DNA from: Bdellovibrionia bacterium
Lineage (GTDB): Bacteria > Bdellovibrionota > UBA1018
Length of the DNA stretch: 30,957 bases
Reading direction: 5' to 3'
Assembly (NCBI GenBank): GCA_045805065.1
Contig: JBJMMA010000180.1
Coordinates: 1 to 30,957, forward strand
Shown here: piece by piece, positions 6,450 through 30,578 of the stretch
Numbering within the stretch: the first letter of the stretch is position 1
How the letters are laid out: each line of letters opens with the position of its first letter
Notes under the pieces: model-generated
What the model was told of the DNA's origin: nothing
Database searches by the model: none
The model's input: only the letters and a program-made list of their open reading frames with translations
Program-made: the position numbers and the translations under genes

Positions 6450-8837
6450 TCACGCGCCACGCTTGAGTTCCCGCAACCTTGGGCCTGCCACGGAACGCCG
6501 AGCAGGAGCTCGTCCGAAAGGTTGGCGTGGCTCAACACGATCAGGTGCAGGCGGAATCGCTCGTGTCACCGGCTCTGGCCCCTGGATGTCAAACGGCTCT
6601 CCATGATGTTCCATGCGCACGGGGCCTTTTCCACGAGTCAATGAGTAGGTGGCCGAACGAGTCGTGATATCGACGCGAATGCAATGTCCGCGATGGAGGA
6701 TTGAGAACGCAAGTCGCGTCAGTCCATCGGGAAGTCTTGGGGAAAATCTCAGGCAATCACCAAACACTCTGAGACCACCAAAACCGAACACAAACGCAAC
6801 CCAGGTTCCCGCAAGAGACGCCATATGCAGTCCGTCCCGGACATTGTGCTCGATATCATGCAGGTCCATGAGCGCGGCCTCGGCAGTATAGTCAAGCGCG
6901 AGGCGCAGGTGACCGGAGTCGACCGCCGCTGCGGCCTGCACACAGGCCGACAGCGACGAATCTCGAACGGTGATCTGCTCATAGTATTCGAAGTTGCGCG
7001 CCCTTTGCTCTGCCGTAAACGCGTAAGGGCAGAGCATCATGGCAAGAACAAGGTCTGGCTGCTTGACGACTTGTTTTCTATAAAGCTGGAAATAGGGGAA
7101 ATGCAAAAGGAGGGGATACTGCTCTGGCTTTGTTGCAGTGAAATCCCATTTCTCATGTTGGGTAAATTCTTCAGACTGAGGATGGATTCCAAGTTTTTCG
7201 TCATATGGAATGCACATTCGATCAGCGGCGGATCGCCAGCTTGCCATCTCCTCAACTGTGACGCCTAAATCTTGAGCCCGACCCTGATGGCGTGCGCAGG
7301 CTTCCACGGCGCCCCGCAAATTGCGCTGAGCCATGAGGTTCGTATAAATATTATTGTCTGCAAGTGCGCTGTACTCATCAGGACCAGTGACGCCGTCGAT
7401 TCGAAAGTTGCCCTCAAGATCGTAATGACCGAGTGATCGCCAGAGACGAGCCGTCTCAACCAGGATATCAATTCCCACGTCGTGCTCAAACTCCCGGTCT
7501 TCGGTCGTCATGACATACAGAAGAACGGAGAACGCCACATCCGCATTGACGTGAAACGCTGCGGTCCCCGCGGGCCAATAACCTGAGCACTCTTCGCCAT
7601 GAATGGTTCGCCATGGATAGGCCGCGCCAGCTAGACCCAGCCTTCGAGCATGCTCTTTTGCGATAGGAAGCGTTGAATGGCGCCAGCGCAAGGCGTCTGC
7701 CGCAGCCTTGGGCGCCGTCTGGGCCAGCATGGGCAGGACATAAAGATCCATGTCCCAGAATGAATGTCCGTCATAGCCTGTACCCGTTAAGCCTTTGGCG
7801 GGAATCGCTCTGCCTTCAGCTCTTGCACTACTTGAGAGCACTTGAAAGATCGCGAATCGAACAGCTTGCTGAAGCTCGGTGTCTCCCTCAAGTTCGACGT
7901 CCGCAGTGGACCAAAAGTCATCCAGATATTTGCGTTGCTCTTCCATCAGTGTATCCCAGCCAGTGTTGTATGCGCCGAGAAGGGCTGCAGCCACCTGATC
8001 GCGCAGCGCTGGACGGGATCGCTCGTGGGACCAACCATAGGCCACAAACTTGATGATCCGAAGTTTTTCGCCAGGCTCCAGTACATCGCTGACGACAAAA
8101 CGAGCTGAATCAGGGCCTGCCTGAGTCAGCGTCTTAAGATGGGGTGATCCCGTCACACGATGATCCATTGCCGCAGCCATTCGAAGTCCGCTCTTTTTTG
8201 TCCGGTGGATCAACAATGCACCGGTGCCTATGGCTTGGTGCTCCTCGGAAACGAGTGGAGACGCAATGGCCGCGGCAATTCTGGGATCCTTCGTGCCTGT
8301 TGGAACTTGCTCATTAGCGACAAGTTCCGACTGAACAACAACATTCACGCGCGCATTGAGAGGCTCGACTTCATACAGGATTCCGACAATTGAGCGATGA
8401 GTAAAAGATACAAAACGTGTGGAATTGATTCGTACGGTGCGCCCCGCCGGTGACTGCCATTCAGTAGTGCGCTTTAAAGTACCTGTTCGAAAATCAAGGA
8501 CTCGCTCATGCGACAAGAGGCGACCATAACGGACATCAAATGGCTCGTCATCGACCAGCAGGCGAAATAATTTCCCGTTCGTCACATTGATCAGCGTCTG
8601 ACTGGAGTCAGGAGCCCCGTATTGAGTCTCCGCCGTAGGCATCGGGCGCAATTCATAGAAGCCATTCAAATACGTTCCAGGAAGACCAAAAGGCTCTCCT
8701 TCATCAAGATTTCCGCGGATTCCGATATGACCGTTGGAAAGCGCAAAAAGAGACTCGGTTTGAGCAAGAACATTCAAATCGAGTGATGTTTCACGCAACG
8801 ACCAGGGCTCGATTCGAAAAGAAGGGCTGTGCATCAT
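6450..8837 (-). CDS. Glycoside hydrolase family 65 (trehalose/maltose/kojibiose phosphorylase-like)
   Basis: Motifs ESLFALSNGHIGIRG, KGLTGTGYDGHSFWD, GVTGPDEY, VVKQPD and DSSLS. Start moved to ATG 8837, which gives an ATGA overlap with the upstream stop. Confidence 0.92.
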   Translation of the reverse strand: MMHSPSFRIEPWSLRETSLDLNVLAQTESLFALSNGHIGIRGNLDEGEPFGLPGTYLNGFYELRPMPTAETQYGAPDSSQTLINVTNGKLFRLLVDDEPFDVRYGRLLSHERVLDFRTGTLKRTTEWQSPAGRTVRINSTRFVSFTHRSIVGILYEVEPLNARVNVVVQSELVANEQVPTGTKDPRIAAAIASPLVSEEHQAIGTGALLIHRTKKSGLRMAAAMDHRVTGSPHLKTLTQAGPDSARFVVSDVLEPGEKLRIIKFVAYGWSHERSRPALRDQVAAALLGAYNTGWDTLMEEQRKYLDDFWSTADVELEGDTELQQAVRFAIFQVLSSSARAEGRAIPAKGLTGTGYDGHSFWDMDLYVLPMLAQTAPKAAADALRWRHSTLPIAKEHARRLGLAGAAYPWRTIHGEECSGYWPAGTAAFHVNADVAFSVLLYVMTTEDREFEHDVGIDILVETARLWRSLGHYDLEGNFRIDGVTGPDEYSALADNNIYTNLMAQRNLRGAVEACARHQGRAQDLGVTVEEMASWRSAADRMCIPYDEKLGIHPQSEEFTQHEKWDFTATKPEQYPLLLHFPYFQLYRKQVVKQPDLVLAMMLCPYAFTAEQRARNFEYYEQITVRDSSLSACVQAAAAVDSGHLRLALDYTAEAALMDLHDIEHNVRDGLHMASLAGTWVAFVFGFGGLRVFGDCLRFSPRLPDGLTRLAFSILHRGHCIRVDITTRSATYSLTRGKGPVRMEHHGEPFDIQGPEPVTRAIPPAPDRVEPRQPFGRAPARRSVAGPRLRELKRGA

Positions 8838-9589
8838 GCGGCTTTTCTCTCCAGAAGGGAGGCCAGGTCTTGAACCACGATATCGGCGCCATGAGCGCGA
8901 AGCTCTGCCTCCTGGCCTAAGCGATCCACTCCGACAACGCAACCAAAGTGACCGGCTCGTCCAGCCTCAACGCCAGATAAAGCGTCTTCAAAGATCACCG
9001 CTCTTGCTGGATCAACACCCAAAGTGCGAGCTGCAGCCAAGTAAGTATCGGGCGCAGGTTTGCCTGCGAGATTCCGGGCGGAGGCGACATTGCCATCGAT
9101 CCTGACATCAAAGAGGTCTTCAATTCCGGCTGACGCGAGAAACTGCTGGCAGTGCTTGCTGGCAGACACCACTGCGGTCCGAAGTCCGGCTTCCCGTGCC
9201 GCCCGGACAAAGCGAACCGACCCTTCGTAAGTCTCCACCTGTTCACGTTGCAGCATCTCGAGCAGTTTTTTGTCTTTCTTTTGCGCAACCTCTCTGACTT
9301 TTTCATCAGGCAGATGGATATCCCGAGATTCAAGAAAGGATCGGGCTCCATCGACTCTGAGCTTGCCGTCCACATACTGAGCGTAATCATGAATGATGTC
9401 GAACGGGACGAGTGGCTTCTTGTCCACCTGTGCCATTGCGCGCAGATATTCATCGAATACCTGCTTCCAGGCCTCAGCATGGAGTTTCGCGGTGCGCGTA
9501 AGAACGCCATCCAAATCAAATAGGCAAGCCTGGATATTATCGGGAAGCTTTAAAACGCCGATCATTTGTTGAGGAGATGCAAGAAGCAT
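8834..9589 (-). CDS. Beta-phosphoglucomutase-family HAD hydrolase
   Basis: FDLDGV, VVSAS, GKPAPD and FEDALSG HAD motifs; coupled to the GH65 gene. Start could be 9565. Confidence 0.88.
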   Translation of the reverse strand: MLLASPQQMIGVLKLPDNIQACLFDLDGVLTRTAKLHAEAWKQVFDEYLRAMAQVDKKPLVPFDIIHDYAQYVDGKLRVDGARSFLESRDIHLPDEKVREVAQKKDKKLLEMLQREQVETYEGSVRFVRAAREAGLRTAVVSASKHCQQFLASAGIEDLFDVRIDGNVASARNLAGKPAPDTYLAAARTLGVDPARAVIFEDALSGVEAGRAGHFGCVVGVDRLGQEAELRAHGADIVVQDLASLLERKAA

Positions 9590-24070: not shown

Positions 24071-24898
24071 ATGGATCATTTTTCGCTCGAAGGGTTATCG
24101 TGGGAGTTGTCGGTTTTATCCAAAGCCGTGGCTTACAAGAATCTTTCTGGAGCCGCGCAAAATGTCGGCATCAGCCAGCCGCAGCTTTCCCGAATTGTTG
24201 GAAAGTTGGAAACAGAGCTCAGAGCCGTACTCTTGGATCGTGGCGCGCGAAGAAAATCGGGTTGGACTCCGCTCGCATTTCAGCTCGCTGAAGTTTATCT
24301 CAAATCGGTTCGCGGATTGAACTCCGACGTTCAAAAGTTGATTGAGGGAAATGAGCCAAGGCTTCTTCATATCGGAACGCTGGAAGGACTCATTCAACTT
24401 GCCGTGAAGTTCGGCAATCATATTCTCACTCAGACCGGCATCGAAACCATTGAAGTGAACGTTTACGATCTCAACGTTCTTGAAGAGAAATTTTTCAAAG
24501 GTGATCTGGATGTGATTTTCACGGCTCGTGAGCCGGGCCGAAAGAAATATCAGTACAGCAAGCATCTGGGTTACCAGTCACTTGAGCTGGTTGAGAGCTC
24601 AGACAAGTTTCGCGTGATGAGCTCTTTTGAATTTGGCGTCTCTGAAGTGAAAGGCGCGCGCCAAAGCAAAAGCAAAAAAAGCGAAGATCAGGGGCCAAAA
24701 ACGATTATTAGTAATTCGCTCGCCGTGCGTCGCCAGTGGATGGAGTCCTGGGGGGGGATCGGCACTCTTCCATCTCCTGTCCGCTCTTTGAAAAAAGCGG
24801 CCGCAACCTCATACAAGGTCGTCGAAGAAGACGATGTCTACCTTTACGCGCAAGACTACCTCAGCTCCGCTCTCTGGGAGAAAGCTGCCAAGTTCTAA
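24071..24898 (+). CDS. LysR family transcriptional regulator (divergent effector domain)
   Basis: NLSGAAQNVGISQPQLSRIVGKLETEL..LLDR HTH motif. Confidence 0.85.
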   Translation: MDHFSLEGLSWELSVLSKAVAYKNLSGAAQNVGISQPQLSRIVGKLETELRAVLLDRGARRKSGWTPLAFQLAEVYLKSVRGLNSDVQKLIEGNEPRLLHIGTLEGLIQLAVKFGNHILTQTGIETIEVNVYDLNVLEEKFFKGDLDVIFTAREPGRKKYQYSKHLGYQSLELVESSDKFRVMSSFEFGVSEVKGARQSKSKKSEDQGPKTIISNSLAVRRQWMESWGGIGTLPSPVRSLKKAAATSYKVVEEDDVYLYAQDYLSSALWEKAAKF

Positions 24899-25142
24899 CC
24901 AAAAGGTGGTCGCCTCCTTTTTGTAGTGACGCCGCGTCAAAGTCCGGAAAGCGAACAAATCACCGCGTGAATCAAACTGAGTTAGAAACCGAGCCGTTCC
25001 AGGCAGGATGCCGTCTGGGAACTGTGACAGGATGTCACAGCGAGGCTTTCTAACTCAGTTTGATTCACGCTGTGATTTGCTCACGTTCGGTGACTTATGA
25101 CACATCTGCGCTACAAAAAGGAGGCGACCACCTTTTGGTTAG
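24895..25142. repeat. Nested palindromic REP/REPIN-like element, copy 1
   Basis: Perfect 32-bp terminal IR (24895-24926 / 25111-25142), 33-bp inner stem (24956-24988 / 25047-25079, 1 mismatch) and a core with two GGA-loop hairpins. Confidence 0.9.
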
Positions 25143-25465
25143 GCAGCCTTTTTCCGCTTTTTGTCTTCCGGAAGCTGTGTGTTTCCTTTGGCGACAGGCT
25201 GCTCTCCAGTTCCGGCTTGGTCCTGATCTGCATGGTCGCTGATGCGCTCGTCTGCGTCTTGGAAGTTGTCATCTTGCTCAGACAGGGGAGGCGTAATCAG
25301 GCTTCCCTGGTCAGGCCGAATTCGTCGAATGCTTGGATCGCCTTGCCCAGGAATGCTGTGCCTGTTTGCCAGCTCGTCTTTCTTTGGATCGACGATTCCG
25401 CTGTCGTGGGCTTCTCGTTCAAGACCTATCAACTTGTCGTCAAATTTCTTTTCTGCGTTTGCCAT
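25139..25465 (-). CDS. Small hydrophilic hypothetical protein
   Basis: 108 aa from ATG 25465 (MANAEKK..), Asp/Gln/Lys-rich, ends KKRKKAA; its stop codon lies inside the element's IR. Confidence 0.55.
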   Translation of the reverse strand: MANAEKKFDDKLIGLEREAHDSGIVDPKKDELANRHSIPGQGDPSIRRIRPDQGSLITPPLSEQDDNFQDADERISDHADQDQAGTGEQPVAKGNTQLPEDKKRKKAA

Positions 25466-25499
25466 GCTTTGAGAGCGTGCAATTGACGCACCTGCACTG

Positions 25500-25524
25500 C
25501 CAAAAGTAGGCGACCACCTTTTGG
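25500..25524 (-). repeat. Solo REP-like end motif
   Basis: CCAAAAGTAGGCGACCACCTTTTGG, the reverse complement of CCAAAAGGTGGTCGCCTACTTTTGG; self-complementary ends. Confidence 0.85.
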
Positions 25525-25552
25525 GTTTTGGCCGAATTGCCGATAAGGAAGT

Positions 25553-28030
25553 GTGAAACTTCGGTCCTTTTTTCAAAACTTGGCGATCATCGGTGGGGCT
25601 TTTTGGAGCCTATGCCTTTGGACTGCCGTTGGTTTTTCTGCTGCTCAGCCTTCTGCGCTCGAGGCTTTGGACCGAATCGCTGAAAAAGCCGGAAGCCTGG
25701 ATGGCTTTCTCAACAGCCCGCAGATCCAGGACGAGTATTTTCACGCGCTCGCAAAGTACTATGGCGAGAGTCGGTTTCCGCGTCAGTCGTTTGACGTTAT
25801 TCTGGGTCAGATAAAAGATCTCGTCGCCAAAGTTCCCGAAGCGAAGGAGAGAATTTGGAGACGGCTGCCGTCGCATGACCCTTCGGTCATTGAGACACTT
25901 GAAGCTCCTGAAGGTGTGCAGCTCCATGCTGAAGGCTGGCAGAAATATCAGTCGCATTGGACTGACCAGCTGAAGAAAGATTCTGAACCCATTCGTGCGC
26001 TTCCGTCTGAGGAAGCTCGTCTGGCTGAGGTGAATCGGCTTTTTTCGCGTTTAGGCAAGCGCGTCCAGGACTTCAACTTGAAATTGAAGTCATCGGGCGT
26101 ATCCAGGCGCGTGCAAGAAGCTCAAAGCCGTGAGTTTTTCTTGAGCCTTCGCAATGATGCCGACTTTAAGAAGGCGACTTCCTATCTTGTGCTGGAGCAA
26201 ATTCAGCATGGAAAAATCTCGGAGTACTTTCATTCGTCCGACCCGAGTCTGGTGCTTTACGGGTTAGAAGAACTGCAAAAGCTTCAAGCGCCAAAGGGAA
26301 TTGAGATCCCTGATTCGCTTCAATCGCTCTTGAAGCATGCATCGCCATCTCCTGAGTCGGTTCTGACTGACTCGAATGTTTTTCATTTACCAAAGCCTGA
26401 AAAAGGCGAGCGATCGGGACGCGCGCTCAAGGCGCAGAAATGGATTTTTCGGGAGCCCCCAAGGCTTCTGCATACTCTCTGGAGAGGTTTGCCTTTGAAT
26501 GAGTGTGTAGGCGGCTCCTGCAAATGGCTGGATGAAACGACTGCTCGTCGCTGGGCGGTAAGTTTGCTTGAAGGCGCGCAGATTCAGTATCTCGAGCGAG
26601 GCGATCACTTTTTAGGATACGTGCAATCAGTTCCCGCGCAGCTTGGCAGCAAGCGCGTGGCCTCTTTGGAAGTCATGGCGCCGGACATGAAAAGAGTTGC
26701 GCTGACTCGCAGTGGTGATGGAGCGGCTTATTCCTCAAAAACCCTGTTTAATGCCTGGTACTCGACTGCCGTGAAGCGGTTGCCTGAAGGAACCCGAGGA
26801 TTTGCTATCGGAAATGCAGAGGGCTTTCATAACGGAAATGGTTACGCGGGTATTTATAGCAGCGGTGCTTTTATCCAAGGAAGCGAGATCGGGTCTTCTG
26901 CCGAATTCATACCCGTCGATGTGAAGTTTGAGAAGAAAGTCGCAAAGTCTGCGCCAGGCGGTGATGTCGCAAAACGATATGGCGGTCCCGATCGAATGAT
27001 TTTTGAAGGACGCGATCTCAACACCGAAATTTTGACCCTGCTGAATCCAGATTCAACATCATCGGATGAAGCTGTGCACTCCGTAGAGGCTGCGAAAGCG
27101 ATCATAAACGGGCCTGTAGAAGGTGAAGGCAGGCTTCTCGCTTCTTTAGCTTTTCAAGAATGGTCACCCGAAATGAACGAGTTGCTCAAGAAAGAGCGCA
27201 AAGTCATCTTGGAAGCATTAAGAAATGAGGACTTACCCGCTCACAAAAGCGCAGTTGAACTGATCAAAAATGCAGTGCCGAGAGCGTTATATACTTTGTT
27301 TAAGAGCGGATGGAATGAACCCGCGACCGCAAAAGAATTTCAAATGCTTGCTGAAGAAGCGAAGTTGTTCATGATGTATCGAAAGAATGTGAAGCGCGTG
27401 ACTACTCCGCTGGGGGATGTGTTTGAGGAAAGGCTAATTCCGTTTTTGAGCAAAAAGCCAAGCTTGGATGAAATTCGAATGGTTCGAAATGCGATGCGAG
27501 AGGCAAGATCAGGCGAATTAGAAATATTATTTATGAAAGAGGCGCTGAAGCGAGTTTCAAACCCGCGGGGTTTTGTTCATATTCTCAATGTGAATGCAGA
27601 AGGTAGTTTGACTCAAGTTTACTCTAAAATGTTTAATGAGTTCGTTCACGAAGTGATGCCAAATCTTCTTCAGTTGAATCCAAGCCCTGAAGACCTGTTC
27701 ATCTTTATGCATTACAATGGAAAGCATCTCGACATCACCAATCTGGAAAGTATCACCCGCGAAGGGCTTCAAAGAGCTAAAACCGCGGATGACTTCATCG
27801 CGTTCGCTACCTTCAATTTTAAGAATCCACTCTCTCAACGAGAGAGTGAGCTTAGGAAAAAACTTATTCAAGAAAACGCCGAGACCTTTCTAAAGCTGCA
27901 TCCAAGCCGAACTCAAAAAGTCATCCTCAACTCATTTGCTCACGATTCCTTCGGACGGCGCGACCTTTTAGACGCCGTACGTGCGGCCCCAGCCTGCATC
28001 GTGCGCTTCATAAAATATCGATTTAACTAA
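25553..28030 (+). CDS. Large orphan secreted protein with C-terminal 74-aa helical repeats
   Basis: 825-aa ORF, GTG start after AAGGAAG, signal-like N-terminus; no confident family assignment. Confidence 0.75.
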   Translation: MKLRSFFQNLAIIGGAFWSLCLWTAVGFSAAQPSALEALDRIAEKAGSLDGFLNSPQIQDEYFHALAKYYGESRFPRQSFDVILGQIKDLVAKVPEAKERIWRRLPSHDPSVIETLEAPEGVQLHAEGWQKYQSHWTDQLKKDSEPIRALPSEEARLAEVNRLFSRLGKRVQDFNLKLKSSGVSRRVQEAQSREFFLSLRNDADFKKATSYLVLEQIQHGKISEYFHSSDPSLVLYGLEELQKLQAPKGIEIPDSLQSLLKHASPSPESVLTDSNVFHLPKPEKGERSGRALKAQKWIFREPPRLLHTLWRGLPLNECVGGSCKWLDETTARRWAVSLLEGAQIQYLERGDHFLGYVQSVPAQLGSKRVASLEVMAPDMKRVALTRSGDGAAYSSKTLFNAWYSTAVKRLPEGTRGFAIGNAEGFHNGNGYAGIYSSGAFIQGSEIGSSAEFIPVDVKFEKKVAKSAPGGDVAKRYGGPDRMIFEGRDLNTEILTLLNPDSTSSDEAVHSVEAAKAIINGPVEGEGRLLASLAFQEWSPEMNELLKKERKVILEALRNEDLPAHKSAVELIKNAVPRALYTLFKSGWNEPATAKEFQMLAEEAKLFMMYRKNVKRVTTPLGDVFEERLIPFLSKKPSLDEIRMVRNAMREARSGELEILFMKEALKRVSNPRGFVHILNVNAEGSLTQVYSKMFNEFVHEVMPNLLQLNPSPEDLFIFMHYNGKHLDITNLESITREGLQRAKTADDFIAFATFNFKNPLSQRESELRKKLIQENAETFLKLHPSRTQKVILNSFAHDSFGRRDLLDAVRAAPACIVRFIKYRFN

Positions 28031-28302
28031 AAGGTGGTAAAAGGTGGTCGCGTACTTTGCCAAAGGTGGTCGCCTCCTTTTTGTAGCGCACCCGCAGCAG
28101 AGTCCGAAAGGCGAACAAAACAAAACGAGTAGAGAACTCAGATAAAAAACCGAGTCGTTCCCAGGCAGGACGCCGACAGGGAATGTGACAGGATGTCACA
28201 ACGAGGGTTTTTATCTGAGTTCTCTACTCGTTTTGTTTTGCTCACGTTTCAGTGAATGACGCGTGTGCGCTACCAAAAGTACGCGACCACCTTTTGGTTT
28301 AG
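28027..28302. repeat. Nested palindromic REP/REPIN-like element, copy 2, with stacked left-end motifs
   Basis: 20-bp IR 28039-28058 / 28276-28295, GTAGCGCAC / GTGCGCTAC, perfect 33-bp stem 28116-28148 / 28208-28240, and a near-identical two-hairpin core. Confidence 0.9.
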
Positions 28303-30578
28303 TAGCGCTGGCGCATGAGGAAGGTGATGACTTCCTTTGCGCACTTGTCGCAGTAGCCGAAGCGCTTCTTCATATTGCTGACGGTGAGGCGAGCCAGCTG
28401 GGCGCCCTCGCTGTCGGCTTTTCCGTTTGAGATGAGCGCTTCTTCAAGGTCTGCATCGGTATTGGCGTTGTAGACAAGAAGGGCGTCATGCATCTTGCTG
28501 AGCGTGGATTTCTGAGATTCGAAATAATGCTTCTCAAGCTTACGCCAGAAGTCCGGGAAGACTTTCGGGTAAGAGACAGGTTGGTTCGGGTGATCCAGAG
28601 ACCAGGCGCCGATCTGGGAGATGATGTTCTGGCGGAAGGCTTCTTTGGCTGAAGCGTCTTCTGGAGCCTCGACAATCTTTTCAAGCTCGTTGATGAGAGC
28701 AAAATCCGGATCTTCCATTTTACCGGTGATCTGGTTCTTCTGCTTTTCCTTCTTCAGAACAAGCGAGATCTGTTGGACGTATTTTTTGAGGAAATCTTCC
28801 CATTGAACAGAGTTATAGAGACCGATCGAGTCGCGGACTTCGCGATCAGCGGTGTTCAGATACTCCGTGCGCGCGGTGGTGATGAACTCGTGCGCGTCGT
28901 GAAAGCCATCCTTCACGTCCTGCTTGAGGAACTCGTATTCGCTGACGCGTTTGACGAATTCTTCCATCTCTCTCAAGACCGCAAGAGGCGAGAGGCAGGG
29001 GAACTCTGGGTTTTGAGCGGCGTCAAAGAGAATGGATTTCATCTCGCGAGCCGATGCGCCCATTCGTCCTTCGTAATAAGGAATGTTCGAATACTCTTCC
29101 CTGAGGCGGCGGATCGAGGCCTTCAGAAGCTTGCGATCCTCAGGCGAGAGCTGCGCAGGGATTTCACCCGTATCGTAAAGGCGAGCTTTCTCAAGCGGCG
29201 TGAGGTTTGCGACAATCGTGCTCACATTCGGTGAGTAATTGATGCTGTTTGGCTTCTTGAGGCGGGTCAGAACGGCCCAGAGAGCCACGGTTTCTGCCAC
29301 GTGCGGAGCAATGTGCTTGTCGCTTGAGAATTGATCGAGCTGCGAAGAGTAGATCTCTTTCTCAGCGCTGACTTGAAGGAGGTAAGGCACGCGGATGAGC
29401 TCGATGCGGGCCTTGAAGCTGATGAAGTCAGGGAACTCCTTGAAAGCATCCAGCTGGATCTCGTTCGTCGATCCCAGCATTACCGCATCCAGATACGCAA
29501 TACTTGAGCCAACGTTCACGGAGCCTGTTTCACAAGCGGTCAGGAGATACTTGAACGTATCCACAGGGCGCTTGAGAAGATCGGAAAATTCAACGATGCC
29601 GCGGTTGGCGTCAACCAGGTCTCCAGTGAGCGAGAAAAGATTCAGCCCCTGAAGAGAGGAGGGCAGTGCCGACATGCTGCGATTGTAAGTGAGCTGGTGA
29701 TACTGAGCATCGACATGCATCTGAGGCTCAATCGTGACAAGACCTCTGCGATATCTGCGAGCGTAGAAGAAGCGCTCGATCTGAACATGCATGAGCACTT
29801 TCTTGAAATCACCGTTATTGCTGGTGAGAAGCGCATCGAAAATCTCGCGATCGCGATGAGCCAGTTCACCGTTTTTGAGATAGTGAGGAAGCGTTTCCCA
29901 AAGCTCATTCGCTTTTTGCGTACCGATCATCTTCTCTAAGAACTGTTTACGTTGCTCTTTAGGAACGATCAGAAGCGGATGGTCTCGCAAATCCGATGGA
30001 ATGCGAGCGGCGATCTCTTCGTCCGGAAGCTTGGCGTAGCTCTGCACAGGCTCCTTGGGAGAGCCGTAGGTCGAATTGATGCCGATCTTGCCTTTGGTGT
30101 AGCTCTCCAATGGGAAAACCCAGCTGAAGGTGTAGACTGCGCCTTCGCTTTCGTTGGAGTAGCGCTCCATTCCGCCCATGAGAGCGTGAATGAGAGAGGT
30201 CTTTGCGCTGCCATTCGGGCCATGCAAAAGAAGAAGGCGATTGTTGAGGCCTTGGCGCGTGAAAGTTCTCAGTGCGCGATAGATCTGGTTCTGAACGACT
30301 TCCTGGCCAACCACTTTTCTCGCAAGGCCGTCCGCAGGGAAATCAAAAAGTTTGAAGCGCGGGGCGGAAGCTCCTTCCACCTCTTCACGTCCAAAGTGAT
30401 CCATCATATCTGCCATGTAGCGAGCTGATCCGCGAAGCTGTCTTTCGGGATGCTCTGCCATCAAGTGCAGGTATTCATCGAAGGAGAGAATCCGCTTATG
30501 GGATTCAAAATCCTTTCGAATAGATTGATCGATCGATCCGATGATTTCGCCAGCCGAGAATGTGCGTCCGTTCGCCAT
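28299..30578 (-). CDS. prkA: PrkA/YeaG family AAA+ ATPase (annotated serine protein kinase)
   Basis: LLLHGPNGSAKTS Walker A-like, DHPL, GDLVDANRGIVEFSDLLK, GASAREM and GYC..CAKEVI C-terminus. Confidence 0.88.
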   Translation of the reverse strand: MANGRTFSAGEIIGSIDQSIRKDFESHKRILSFDEYLHLMAEHPERQLRGSARYMADMMDHFGREEVEGASAPRFKLFDFPADGLARKVVGQEVVQNQIYRALRTFTRQGLNNRLLLLHGPNGSAKTSLIHALMGGMERYSNESEGAVYTFSWVFPLESYTKGKIGINSTYGSPKEPVQSYAKLPDEEIAARIPSDLRDHPLLIVPKEQRKQFLEKMIGTQKANELWETLPHYLKNGELAHRDREIFDALLTSNNGDFKKVLMHVQIERFFYARRYRRGLVTIEPQMHVDAQYHQLTYNRSMSALPSSLQGLNLFSLTGDLVDANRGIVEFSDLLKRPVDTFKYLLTACETGSVNVGSSIAYLDAVMLGSTNEIQLDAFKEFPDFISFKARIELIRVPYLLQVSAEKEIYSSQLDQFSSDKHIAPHVAETVALWAVLTRLKKPNSINYSPNVSTIVANLTPLEKARLYDTGEIPAQLSPEDRKLLKASIRRLREEYSNIPYYEGRMGASAREMKSILFDAAQNPEFPCLSPLAVLREMEEFVKRVSEYEFLKQDVKDGFHDAHEFITTARTEYLNTADREVRDSIGLYNSVQWEDFLKKYVQQISLVLKKEKQKNQITGKMEDPDFALINELEKIVEAPEDASAKEAFRQNIISQIGAWSLDHPNQPVSYPKVFPDFWRKLEKHYFESQKSTLSKMHDALLVYNANTDADLEEALISNGKADSEGAQLARLTVSNMKKRFGYCDKCAKEVITFLMRQRY

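Follow-up and report, generated by a model that had tools for sequence, protein, structure and literature searches.

REP-type inverted ends around a probably separate palindromic module in a two-element, two-gene block of a Bdellovibrionia bacterium

The two palindromic elements of about 250 bp found in the window—the whole stretch of 30,957 nucleotides analysed here—are probably REPIN-type non-autonomous elements built around a second, older palindrome; their ends would be cognate to a RAYT-like gene on contig C111, and the two copies would bracket a block that represents one insertion or deletion relative to the sister genome G001. Sequence inspection of the window places element 1 at 24899-25142 and element 2 at 28062-28299, each consisting of two separable layers, i.e. 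an outer inverted pair of REP units and an inner palindrome. The individual features are as follows:

24898..28301, no strand: interval of 3.4 kb missing from G001, with both elements and two genes
24896-24898: LysR stop codon TAA, overlapped by the outer end of the left REP unit of element 1
24899..24939, plus strand: element 1, left REP unit; A-tract hairpin, GGTGGTCGC at 24905, GTAG at 24923-24926, GCGTCA tail
24940..25097, plus strand: element 1, inner module; shell side A, stem, core and shell side B (CTCACGTT...); covariance model 144.7 bits
about 24955-24988 with 25047-25080: element 1, stem of 33 bp
24989-25046: element 1, core; 58-nt three-way junction with two C-AGGAT-G loops
25098..25142, minus strand: element 1, inverted REP unit on the right, overlapping with its outer end the stop codon of the small minus-strand ORF
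25139..25474, minus strand: small hydrophilic ORF in the 3.4-kb block; 111 aa from ATG, no Pfam family
25483..25524, minus strand: solo REP unit between two divergent cargo ORFs; GGCAG instead of GGTAG
25553..28030, plus strand: 825-aa ORF, cargo of the block; signal-peptide-like N-terminus, no Pfam family
28031..28058, plus strand: partial tandem REP hairpin fragments, AAAAGGTGGT followed by AAAAGGTGGTCGCGTACTTT, immediately 3' of the 825-aa ORF's stop codon
28060..28101, plus strand: element 2, left REP unit; GGTGGTCGC at 28065, GTAG at 28083-28086
28102..28255, plus strand: element 2, inner module; core at 28150-28207, shell A on its 5' side and shell B on its 3' side; covariance model 155.3 bits
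28256..28299, minus strand: element 2, inverted REP unit on the right, its outer end reaching into the stop codon of prkA (28299-28301, minus strand)

The repeat search identified the two elements as direct repeats of one another (70-82%) and recovered the inverted arms of both: for element 1 the outer arms of 45 nt (24895-24939 versus 25098-25142; 87%) and the inner arms of 42 nt (24947-24988 versus 25047-25088; 90%), and for element 2 arms of 97 nt (28062-28158 versus 28198-28294; 81%). As single-stranded DNA, elements 1 and 2 fold with -92.8 kcal/mol (z = -15.8) and -79.7 kcal/mol (z = -13.4), respectively, with 0 of 200 shuffles being as good in either case. The layout described in the original prediction—GTAG, a spacer ending with GCGAA, a stem of ~33 bp, CTCACGTT and CTAC—is present in both elements, together with the hairpins GGC-AGGAY-GCC and TGTGAC-AGGAT-GTCACA of the 58-nt core, and both elements fill gaps between convergent genes, as had been claimed, overlapping even the stop codons. 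It should be pointed out that the solo end motif (25483-25524), the partial tandem motifs (28031-28058) and the multi-copy status had not been part of that description.

Concerning the outer layer, the REP unit of 45 nt consists of a hairpin with the architecture A-tract/GGTGGTCGC/T-tract, followed by GTAGCGC and then GCGTCA, and is inverted at both ends of the element. Exact REP 17-mers occur 38 times in this genome, three times in G001 and not at all in 59 other relatives, the reversed pattern giving 0 in this genome, and blastn likewise located element matches at 38 places here; the search of the genome and its relatives thus revealed far more than the two copies of the window. REP units are also found without the inner module, i.e. 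as a doublet on C111 and, in a metagenomic relative, as solo REPs and simple dimers. The idea of one new element family stood as far as its multi-copy nature is concerned (38 places, 34 cores); the element is, however, divisible, with ends that would belong to the known REPIN kind and a centre that would be separate.

The ORF on C111 encodes a RAYT-like protein of ~218 aa with a C-terminal extension, carrying both the HUH (NHFHMIL) and the YRNPVKA motifs. It scores 65.9 bits (E = 3.4e-18) against the NCBIfam model REP_Tyr_transpos, below the curated cut-off of 80 bits, and 18.1 bits against Pfam Y1_Tnp, under the curated cut-off of 23 bits; its sole PDB match is TnpA-REP (4ER8; E = 2.5e-6), in an alignment that includes both motifs. 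A single REP lies downstream of the gene and a doublet directly upstream of it, so that the proposed look for a RAYT/Y1 HUH gene flanked by the end motif ended at a gene bracketed by exactly that motif. Its homologues in relatives are accompanied by hairpins of the AAAGG...CCTTT type at 6 of the 11 loci printed, as detected by a regular expression, and at ~3 more by eye; every locus shows a loop variant of its own, as a rule in inverted orientation at the two flanks and with a TGACGC tail, GTAG not being kept by all of these REPs. Differing RAYT paralogues with their own REP types are represented by those on C111, C34 and C152. Since the same REP brackets the RAYT-like gene, and the homologues in relatives lie between REP variants of their own, the ends are assigned to REPINs, as a predicted representative, specific to this lineage, of the known REP/REPIN-RAYT type. 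The 45-nt units would be the cognate repeats of the C111 HUH/Y1 transposase, which, by analogy with TnpA-REP, may act in trans on the REP folded as a single strand, recognising, cutting and rejoining it; such activity would explain why the element has multiplied in this lineage.

The closest counterpart is the REPIN-RAYT system as described for Pseudomonas fluorescens and others (PMC3116915, PMC3337134), where likewise two inverted REPs give one long hairpin, tens of copies are extragenic, the RAYT gene is bracketed by the same REPs, the copy number follows the presence of the cognate RAYT, and the paralogues have their own REP types. The differences here concern the spacer (~160-190 nt), which is in itself a conserved palindromic module, built on a three-way junction and found also on its own, the RAYT with its length, C-terminal extension and scores under the curated cut-offs, and the host, a Bdellovibrio-like soil lineage, for which a literature search for REP or RAYT yielded no relevant paper. 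The E. coli REP/BIME with TnpA-REP (PDB 4ER8; PMC8266576, PMC3479197) also share an HUH/Y1 enzyme (HUH and YxxNPVK aligned), a hairpin repeat with conserved GTAG, the location at gene ends and mosaic clusters of differing REP types, the last being seen in one relative here. GTAG of the canonical E. coli REP lies, however, 5' of the stem, with cleavage at a CT dinucleotide (PMC8266576), whereas here all that it precedes is a mini-palindrome CGC...GCG of 3-4 bp, the main A-tract/T-tract hairpin lying on its 5' side. The GTAG-tagged REP dimers reported by Di Nocera et al. (2013; PMC3733652) likewise have GTAG inside ('TT') and stem-loop spacers, are tied to longer palindromes and provide flanking ORFs with stop codons from the REP termini. 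In that survey, the target palindromes of A. variabilis and H. neapolitanus were not found without REPs, whereas the inner palindrome here is abundant without them and conserved across the order; the words Bdellovibrio and deltaproteobacteria have 0 occurrences each in the text of the survey.

The inner layer is a palindrome of ~130 bp, with a ~33-bp stem variable in sequence and with Watson-Crick pairing kept, and with a conserved three-way junction bearing two C-AGGAW-G hairpin loops. In this genome, blastn found 34 inner cores and the covariance model 34 places at 92 bits or more plus three weaker ones; the comparison of the module with Rfam gave no match. Of 32 modules, 13 carry REPs at both ends, 6 at one end only, and 13 have none, and diverged homologues are spread across the order, including other families without these REP ends. 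Judged from sequence, the T-shaped centre is a separate palindromic module, older than the REP ends. The arms of the REP-flanked modules are just 68% alike, which means that the composites are not copies of very recent date, unless the arms evolve rapidly.

The module arms are paired in 94.6% of cells, compared with 72.2% in shuffles and 35-47% when slid, and exhibit 282 double versus 20 single-sided changes, values reached by 0 of 500 shuffles. With respect to the asymmetric shell, the core is oriented A-core-B in ~9 copies and B-core-A in ~8. Watson-Crick arms and a core flipped in about half of the copies are the expected products of template switching or recombination between inverted arms, which may have generated this pattern; according to PMC8604942, the arms become homogenised and the spacer inverted when templates switch between inverted repeats.

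The T-shaped fold, the very strong folding z-scores and the two core orientations could also be taken to mean that the 250-bp unit is a single integrated novel element, its T-cap being nicked by an HUH enzyme and the element propagating by rolling-hairpin or peel-and-paste, with the REP-like ends merely accessory. Parvoviral ITRs are similar in having a long stem, two small hairpins in a T cap, flip and flop forms and processing by an HUH enzyme. Here, however, the element is chromosomal and internal rather than a genome terminus, and the cap is found without HUH-linked ends; as nothing seen here links the T-cap to HUH nicking, the ITR remains an analogy only. A second multi-copy Y1/HUH family (4 copies in this genome) occurs in each of the 10 relatives that have a module match and in 26 of the 50 that have none, which would suit such an element; its paralogues are, however, only 50-76% identical, no common flanking hairpins were seen around them, and the module-bearing contigs of this genome and G001 carry Y1 genes of neither family. 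Neither of the two Y1 families profiled in this genome showed a Rep-helicase. Since, moreover, core and ends each occur without the other, modules lacking REPs are orthologous and stable between the two genomes with only REP-bearing composites varying, and recombination between inverted repeats explains the flip and flop more simply, an integrated element is the least likely of the readings considered here, with a very small probability. Mobilisation in trans by an HUH enzyme, as originally envisaged, retains support at the ends, through the RAYT-like gene and the empty sites in G001, but nothing extends it to the T-cap.

The two C-AGGAW-G loops look like a conserved protein-docking site, the leading candidate for the putative partner being CsrA on RNA, and the alternative a putative ssDNA hairpin-binding protein. 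The GGA of HP1 and the HP2 loop are invariant or nearly so in 31 copies and kept in other families of the order, the junction exhibits an invariant GA/GA internal loop and a covarying G-Y/R-C helix, and the genome has one csrA gene (90.9 bits). It is conceivable, albeit rather unlikely, that the module is chiefly a functional RNA—a 3'-UTR or sRNA with two CAGGAWG loops binding a CsrA dimer, serving as a dispersed sponge or cis-regulator, and with the long stem as a terminator or exonuclease block—which would be compatible with REPIN ends. Besides the above conservation and csrA itself, this is favoured by the location at gene 3' ends (13 convergent, 9 tandem and 1 divergent of 23 classifiable sites) and by the fit of both loops to the CsrB repeat CAGGA(U/A/C)G with GGA in the hairpin loop, CsrB/RsmZ-type hairpins likewise having CAGGA(U/A)G loops (PMC7652899) and the two sites per unit here fitting a dimer. 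Only two GGA sites per unit, however, lie here inside a perfect DNA palindrome of 33 bp tolerated in either strand orientation (tandem sites: 3 sense, 6 antisense), unlike known CsrA ligands, the SELEX hairpins in the same source having mostly at most 4 bp; no promoter-like site was found in 24700-28500. The near-absence of G-U among the arm changes and a wobble bias to neither strand (20 of the arm mismatches would be wobble pairs on one strand and 30 on the other, versus 1187 Watson-Crick pairs) point to a DNA-level rather than a one-strand RNA constraint.

As far as the surroundings are concerned, LysR and prkA abut directly in G001 at a seamless CTAG junction with overlapping stop codons, the whole 3.4-kb interval thus being absent there. 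The G001 junction reads ...GTTC TA GTAGCGC..., and the window junctions ...GTTC TA/ACCAAAAGG ... CCTTTTGGTT TA/GTAGCGC... (block borders marked by a slash), i.e. with TA on both sides and with the block bordering directly 5' of a natural GTAGCGC. The sole G001 homologue of the 825-aa ORF, 49% identical, is located elsewhere and adjoins an inner-module pair. Four REP-flanked sites were queried in G001, the fourth being unalignable; the composites are missing at all three alignable orthologous sites (the window block, C10 and C103), in agreement with the expectation of empty sites in relatives, LysR/prkA included. At the C103 site, G001 has a solo REP of another type, and the C10 site shows neither a clean excision nor a clean insertion. 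By contrast with the composites, for each of the three module loci tested from G001 the orthologous site here is occupied by a module. The two composites and the two genes between them are best read as one insertion or deletion relative to G001; loss in G001 rather than gain here could be the alternative direction.

That nothing is mobile today—ancient gene-end palindromes, such as terminators or supercoiling sites, evolving in place, with the G001 differences being deletions—is very unlikely. It would agree with the orthology of the REP-less modules, the 68% likeness of composite arms, the position at gene ends with overlapped stop codons, and four soil runs that gave only low-depth contigs and no polymorphic joints. 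The contrast of 38 versus 3 REPs, with flanks ~78-84% identical, the lack of composites at the three sites, and the presence of a cognate RAYT gene whose HUH and Tyr motifs are intact speak against it; the seamless CTAG junction with overlapping stops in G001 makes a 3.4-kb deletion an unlikely origin. It should be noted that the G001 assembly is a draft of 490 contigs, from which a RAYT gene flanked by repeats could be missing for lack of assembly.

Correia (CREE/NEMIS) and ERIC/IRU elements are also intergenic imperfect palindromes of 100-250 bp at gene ends with co-transcribed hairpins, Correia elements having TA at their insertion borders, and thus resemble the present elements in size, location, hairpins and borders. 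These families are not known to have either a cognate RAYT-type gene bracketed by their ends or a conserved three-way-junction core with covarying hairpins, whereas the elements here have both a REP-bracketed RAYT-like gene and such a core. The simple terminator scan called one site, at 25148-25126 on the minus strand in the right REP region of element 1, based on a different stem, and not the REP hairpins themselves. For 18 of 37 REPs, a frame of at least 80 codons reads in and stops 2-11 nt before GGTGG, 16 of the 18 stops being TAA, compared with 172 of 4000 random positions. The outer end of the REP, TAA(A)CCAAAAGG, lands on stop codons, so that genes read straight into the A-tract/hairpin/T-tract; from this shape and position, it is plausible that the element also provides both convergent genes with a 3'-end or terminator structure.

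The two hairpin elements, laid out in the original prediction as sharing one design, are present at 24899-25142 (element 1) and 28062-28299 (element 2), as confirmed by inspection of the window sequence. The repeat search of the window found 45-nt terminal arms, 42-nt inner arms and a 97-nt arm pair in the second copy, the two copies being direct repeats of each other at 70-82%. Folded as single-stranded DNA, they reach -92.8 kcal/mol (z = -15.8) and -79.7 kcal/mol (z = -13.4), none of 200 shuffles being as stable. The case of only two existing copies does not apply: blastn with copy 1 against its own assembly (4.22 Mb in 262 contigs; genome G000) yielded 75 matches at 38 places, and the 58-nt core alone occurs there 34 times. 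The covariance model, derived from 31 copies, recovered in the same genome 34 places with at least 92 bits plus three weaker ones; the reverse strand scored ~60-90 bits below the forward one, so that the core is truly asymmetric. In the comparison with Rfam no family was matched at its gathering score; at E <= 1 there were just four sub-threshold matches to miRNA hairpins, which scored 24-28 bits where 70-140 would be required and were taken as chance.

Side-by-side reading of all copies shows that the element is modular and consists of two layers, i.e. the REP units at the ends and the inner module between them:

REP unit (outer layer), 45 nt: TAA(A)CCAAAA-GGTGGTCGC-STMC-TTTT-(T/G)GTAGCGCA-NNN-GCGTCA, inverted at both ends of the composite
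Solo REP unit: window 25483-25524
Inner module, ~130 bp: stem of ~33-36 bp, varying in sequence from copy to copy with the pairing kept, enclosing a conserved junction
Junction, 5' part: CC, GA, G-Y, then hairpin HP1 TTCCCAGGC-AGGAT-GCC with a 3-nt 3' bulge
Junction, 3' part: hairpin HP2 TGYGAC-AGGAW-GTCRCA, then R-C, GA, GG
Inverted module pairs (minus then plus), four in G000: contigs C134:1044/1255, C134:5657/5889, C170:18421/18698 and C247:13788/14005

The REP-to-core distance is fixed on both sides. Among the 32 modules of G000 with enough flank, REPs are present on both sides in 13, on one side in six and on neither in 13, some of the last carrying other REP-like hairpins. In the four inverted pairs, all placed between convergent genes, the two modules are separated by 210-280 bp; the C247 pair, together with copies on contigs C76 and C188 of G001 (the sister genome of the same genus), exhibits a distinct junction subtype, GAAGC...GCGCC instead of CCGAG...CGAGG.

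Concerning the inner module, standard pairs occupy 94.6% of the cells in the 31-copy alignment; shuffled alignments give 72.2%, and sliding the partner gives 35-47%. Double changes are seen at 39 of the 45 pairs, with 282 double-changed cells versus 20 single-sided ones (0 of 500 shuffles reaching the observed values). Of the arm mismatches, 20 would be wobble if read on the strand with AGGA and 30 if read on its complement, while Watson-Crick pairs number 1187; where the module lies between tandem genes, three cores are in sense and six in antisense orientation; the 23 classifiable sites are convergent (13), tandem (9) or divergent (1). Such a pattern is the mark of a palindrome maintained at the DNA level, with both strands perfect, rather than of an RNA stem formed by one strand. 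Between REP and stem lies an asymmetric shell (side A, ...GCAGCAAAGTCCGAAAG-CGAAC; side B, ...GCGTCAT-N-TGAAACGTGAGC), and the core occurs in both orientations (flip/flop), A-core-B in ~9 copies and B-core-A in ~8. Template switching between inverted repeats, which reportedly homogenises arms and inverts spacers (PMC8604942), accounts both for the perfect arms and for the core flipping. The module may be a naturally occurring case in which template switching homogenises the arms and inverts the spacer of a structure under selection, and it cautions that compensatory changes are not proof of a functional RNA.

The module loops equal the CsrB repeat CAGGA(U/A/C)G, as given in a section of PMC7652899, with GGA placed in a hairpin loop as in CsrA-binding hairpins, and G000 has one csrA gene; because of this match and the presence of csrA, CsrA binding would be the leading guess at the module's function. 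The strand preference and the G-U signature expected of a Csr/Rsm RNA are, however, not seen in the inner module, and the DNA-level signature argues that an RNA function, if any, would not be what shapes the stems. As regards the likeness to parvovirus-type ITRs, it holds for the T shape and for the flip/flop but goes no further: both elements lie inside chromosomal contigs, flanked by housekeeping genes, and not at the terminus of a linear replicon.

The module is not confined to this genus. Diverged homologues from other families of the order keep HP1 as GSC-AGGAT-GSC-GARAG as well as the GGA loop of HP2; their cores are found inside unrelated long palindromes, beside unrelated housekeeping genes, and this REP accompanies none of them. 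Long-term, order-wide constraint acts on the unpaired loop bases, and yet the stems evolve freely, if always in perfect Watson-Crick pairing. At three of the homologous loci—L082, L093 (G018:C76) and L084 (G002:C13)—the arms around the core are paired across the entire 260 nt displayed; these palindromes are far longer than those of G000, which is unusual for a bacterial chromosome. The exact core pattern was found in ten stretches of genome contigs, several of them in just one MAG, from Bacteriovoracaceae (three matches, loci L076 and L078); the remaining ones, singles in unrelated phyla, were taken as chance. It should be noted that the looser two-loop pattern has matches in 111 of the 401 genomes of the phylum, mostly single ones in coding sequences and with a non-zero control in several genomes, so it was used only to pick multi-copy members within the order. 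In another family of the phylum (G203, G243, G258 and G371), the recurrent stretch CAGGATGCC-(A/G)AAAAGAGGGG(A)CC-(N)-TGCAGGAGG may represent a structured small RNA of another kind that carries GGA motifs.

Among intragenomic replicators that are long-lived and passed on vertically, REPINs and RAYTs have been studied best, and they are known mainly from Proteobacteria; to our knowledge, their movement has still not been shown in vivo. The REP ends of the present composites are a lineage-specific member of this REP/REPIN-RAYT kind, since an HUH gene flanked by the same motif exists. It is one of seven Y1_Tnp-like matches in G000 and lies on contig C111, bracketed by the exact REP unit—one REP at 8326-8369 downstream, and upstream, abutting the RAYT start codon, an inverted REP doublet without inner module at 9064-9189. 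Its product carries the HUH motif NHFHMIL and the tyrosine motif YRNPVKA. It matches NCBIfam NF047646, 'REP-associated tyrosine transposase', with E = 3.4e-18 and 65.9 bits (equivalog cut-off 80) and Pfam Y1_Tnp with 18.1 bits, below the 23-bit cut-off, the sole PDB match being 4ER8, the E. coli TnpA-REP (E = 2.5e-6), with both motifs aligned. The expectation of an HUH enzyme encoded elsewhere and flanked by the end motif was thus borne out for the ends.

There are three RAYT paralogues of the C111 type in G000, those on C34 and C152 adjoining different hairpin types. Homologues were found in 17 of the 61 genomes searched (G000 included), and of 11 homologue loci displayed in the flank survey, six by regular expression and ~3 more on visual inspection have, on either side, a loop variant of their own of the AAAGG...CCTTT plus TGACGC design. 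These Bdellovibrio-like soil bacteria therefore hold a RAYT clade in which gene and REP variants change together from genus to genus. In G001, no C111-type RAYT was detected at E <= 1e-10, an absence that is not proven in a draft of 490 contigs; the profile search gave only three distant Y1 proteins, 22% identical to the C111 RAYT and with no REP flanks, which were rejected as C111-type. These three (C13:23034-23387, C134:8892-9248 and C176:3325-3678; L146-L148) make up a third Y1-like family, with the HUH motif SNHVHLIL in open frames of 243-283 aa, observed in G001 and not in G000.

A search with the exact REP 17-mer gave 38 matches in G000 (0 with the reversed pattern as control), three in G001 and none in the 59 other relatives, so that, as in other REP/REPIN-RAYT systems, presence tracks RAYT: 38 REPs with three RAYTs in the one genome, three REPs with no C111-type RAYT detected in the other, a draft. 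A cognate Y1 HUH gene, its bracketing by REPs, and many copies with inverted doublets are likewise shared with those systems, and the overall pattern agrees with what portions of the REP/REPIN-RAYT literature describe (PMC8266576, PMC3733652). The literature search found no paper on REP/REPIN-RAYT in Bdellovibrio-like bacteria. One trait agrees less cleanly, namely GTAG, kept in 33 of the 37 readable REP copies: in REP/REPIN-RAYT systems it stands 5' of the stem; here it is found on the 3' side of the main hairpin, and the only palindrome to which it is 5' is a CGC..GCG one of 3-4 bp; the REPs of the relatives show GGTAG, GGTTCAG or TGTAAAG. With regard to a MITE of a DDE transposon, marked by terminal inverted repeats and target duplication, TA does flank both sides of element 1 and of the 3.4-kb block between LysR and prkA, yet TAA..TTA belongs to the inverted end and the stop codons, and RAYT is the sole gene seen bracketed by these REP ends.

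At 18 of 37 REPs a frame of at least 80 codons enters and stops 2-11 nt before GGTGG (172 of 4000 at random positions), with TAA as the stop codon in 16 of the 18; the genes thus run into the A-tract, hairpin and T-tract. Stop codons supplied by REP termini are a feature in common with the REPs of Di Nocera et al. (as noted in a part of PMC3733652). Scanning 24700-28500 gave nine terminator sites against 5.5 expected, the REP hairpins themselves not being called, and no sigma-70 promoter. The AAGGAGG within the REP, considered as a flip switch or ribosome-binding site, was rejected, being the complement of the hairpin arm. Inverted REP doublets without module are present, besides C111, at L134 and L135. 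A more distant relative, represented by metagenome contigs, carries this REP singly behind stop codons, in mosaics together with REPs of other types, and as plain dimers that have a ~30-nt spacer and lack the inner module. On five metagenome contigs of a related organism (L133, L137, L140, L143 and L144), type-1 REPs form BIME-like clusters, standing in tandem mosaics with REP hairpins of two or three further types; a canonical intrinsic terminator, rich in GC, often comes next.

The comparison with G001 also supplied the empty sites looked for in relatives: at all three composite sites with an alignable orthologue, G001 lacks the composite. It has ~25 nt in its place at the C10 site and a solo REP of the C34 type, with the common GTAGCGCAGGYGCGTCAT tail, at the C103 site; the fourth site, C170_3437, is uninformative, its left flank being unmatched in G001. 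Each of the three G001 module loci compared, on the other hand, has its counterpart in G000, where a module occupies the orthologous position, with stems and even junction subtype differing between the orthologues. Because composites are absent from the G001 sites and modules are kept, the REP-bearing composite is taken as the form expanded in the RAYT-bearing genome and the bare modules as old residents.

The remaining site is that of the window. On G001 contig C458, the LysR 3' end is joined directly to the prkA 3' end (...GTTC TAG TAGCGC...), the two stop codons overlapping in the palindrome CTAG (G001:C458:895-902, L099). The window splits these junction bases, reading GTTC TA/ACCAAAAGG ... 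CCTTTTGGTT TA/GTAGCGC; the block has TA at each side and adjoins a natural GTAGCGC. Since G001 joins the bases that the window splits, the entire interval—both elements, the small ORF, the solo REP and the 825-aa ORF—is, judged from this alignment, one indel of ~3.4 kb. Its GC content is 0.43-0.53, compared with 0.50-0.55 in the flanks. The original prediction of a single new hairpin family holds in part: the ends are of the known REP/REPIN-RAYT kind, and the palindrome nested between them is a separate module. What is new is an independent, order-wide T-junction palindrome nested in a REPIN, its flip/flop, and a 3.4-kb indel bracketed by REPINs; the REPINs of this lineage have engulfed a second structured element.

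Insertion of the block as a unit, as opposed to stepwise assembly, is a possibility to which we would give at most an even chance. The four soil DNA runs, all from one study, gave short contigs at a depth of ~3 with no joints across the block and are uninformative on polymorphism. Comparing G000 with G001 provides a clean empty site for 3.4 kb of cargo enclosed by two REPINs. If the block did move as a unit, it would be a first hint that REPINs can transduce genes. A joint reading, which we consider rather unlikely, would take the composites as ends of a 3.4-kb composite transposon that carried a secreted-protein gene and the small ORF into the overlapping LysR/prkA stop codons. The T-junction module would then be an undescribed order-wide docking element for CsrA or a single-stranded-DNA-binding protein, captured by the REPIN and amplified ~tenfold in this lineage. 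We know of no case in which the RAYT/REPIN system has been regarded as moving anything except itself; on the joint reading, it could carry cargo genes as well.

The 825-aa protein begins with a signal-peptide-like stretch and belongs to no Pfam family. Its sole G001 homologue, 49% identical, is encoded elsewhere in the genome (C76:8297-11544, L096/L108), next to two inner modules that form an inverted pair, and the slots filled by this accessory gene family beside the palindromes seem to vary. Metagenome contigs gave 73 pattern matches to the cargo protein, none confirmed. At the G000 locus syntenic to G001 C76 (C65 end/C41 start), the modules are apparently present and the gene is not, the contigs breaking in the modules.

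A second Y1/HUH family, of ~200 aa with the HUH motif GNHLHLL, has G000 paralogues 50-76% identical to each other (C226:9476-10078, C143:7321-7923, C243:85-711 and C251:16000-16488), around which no shared flanking hairpins were seen. It never shares a contig with the inner module; since it co-occurs without ever being linked, it is a weak lead as the module's partner. The family was found in 10 of 10 relatives with an inner-module match and in 26 of 50 without, and it is multi-copy in many of them; a single genome can have as many as 20 matches, and G001 has 14.
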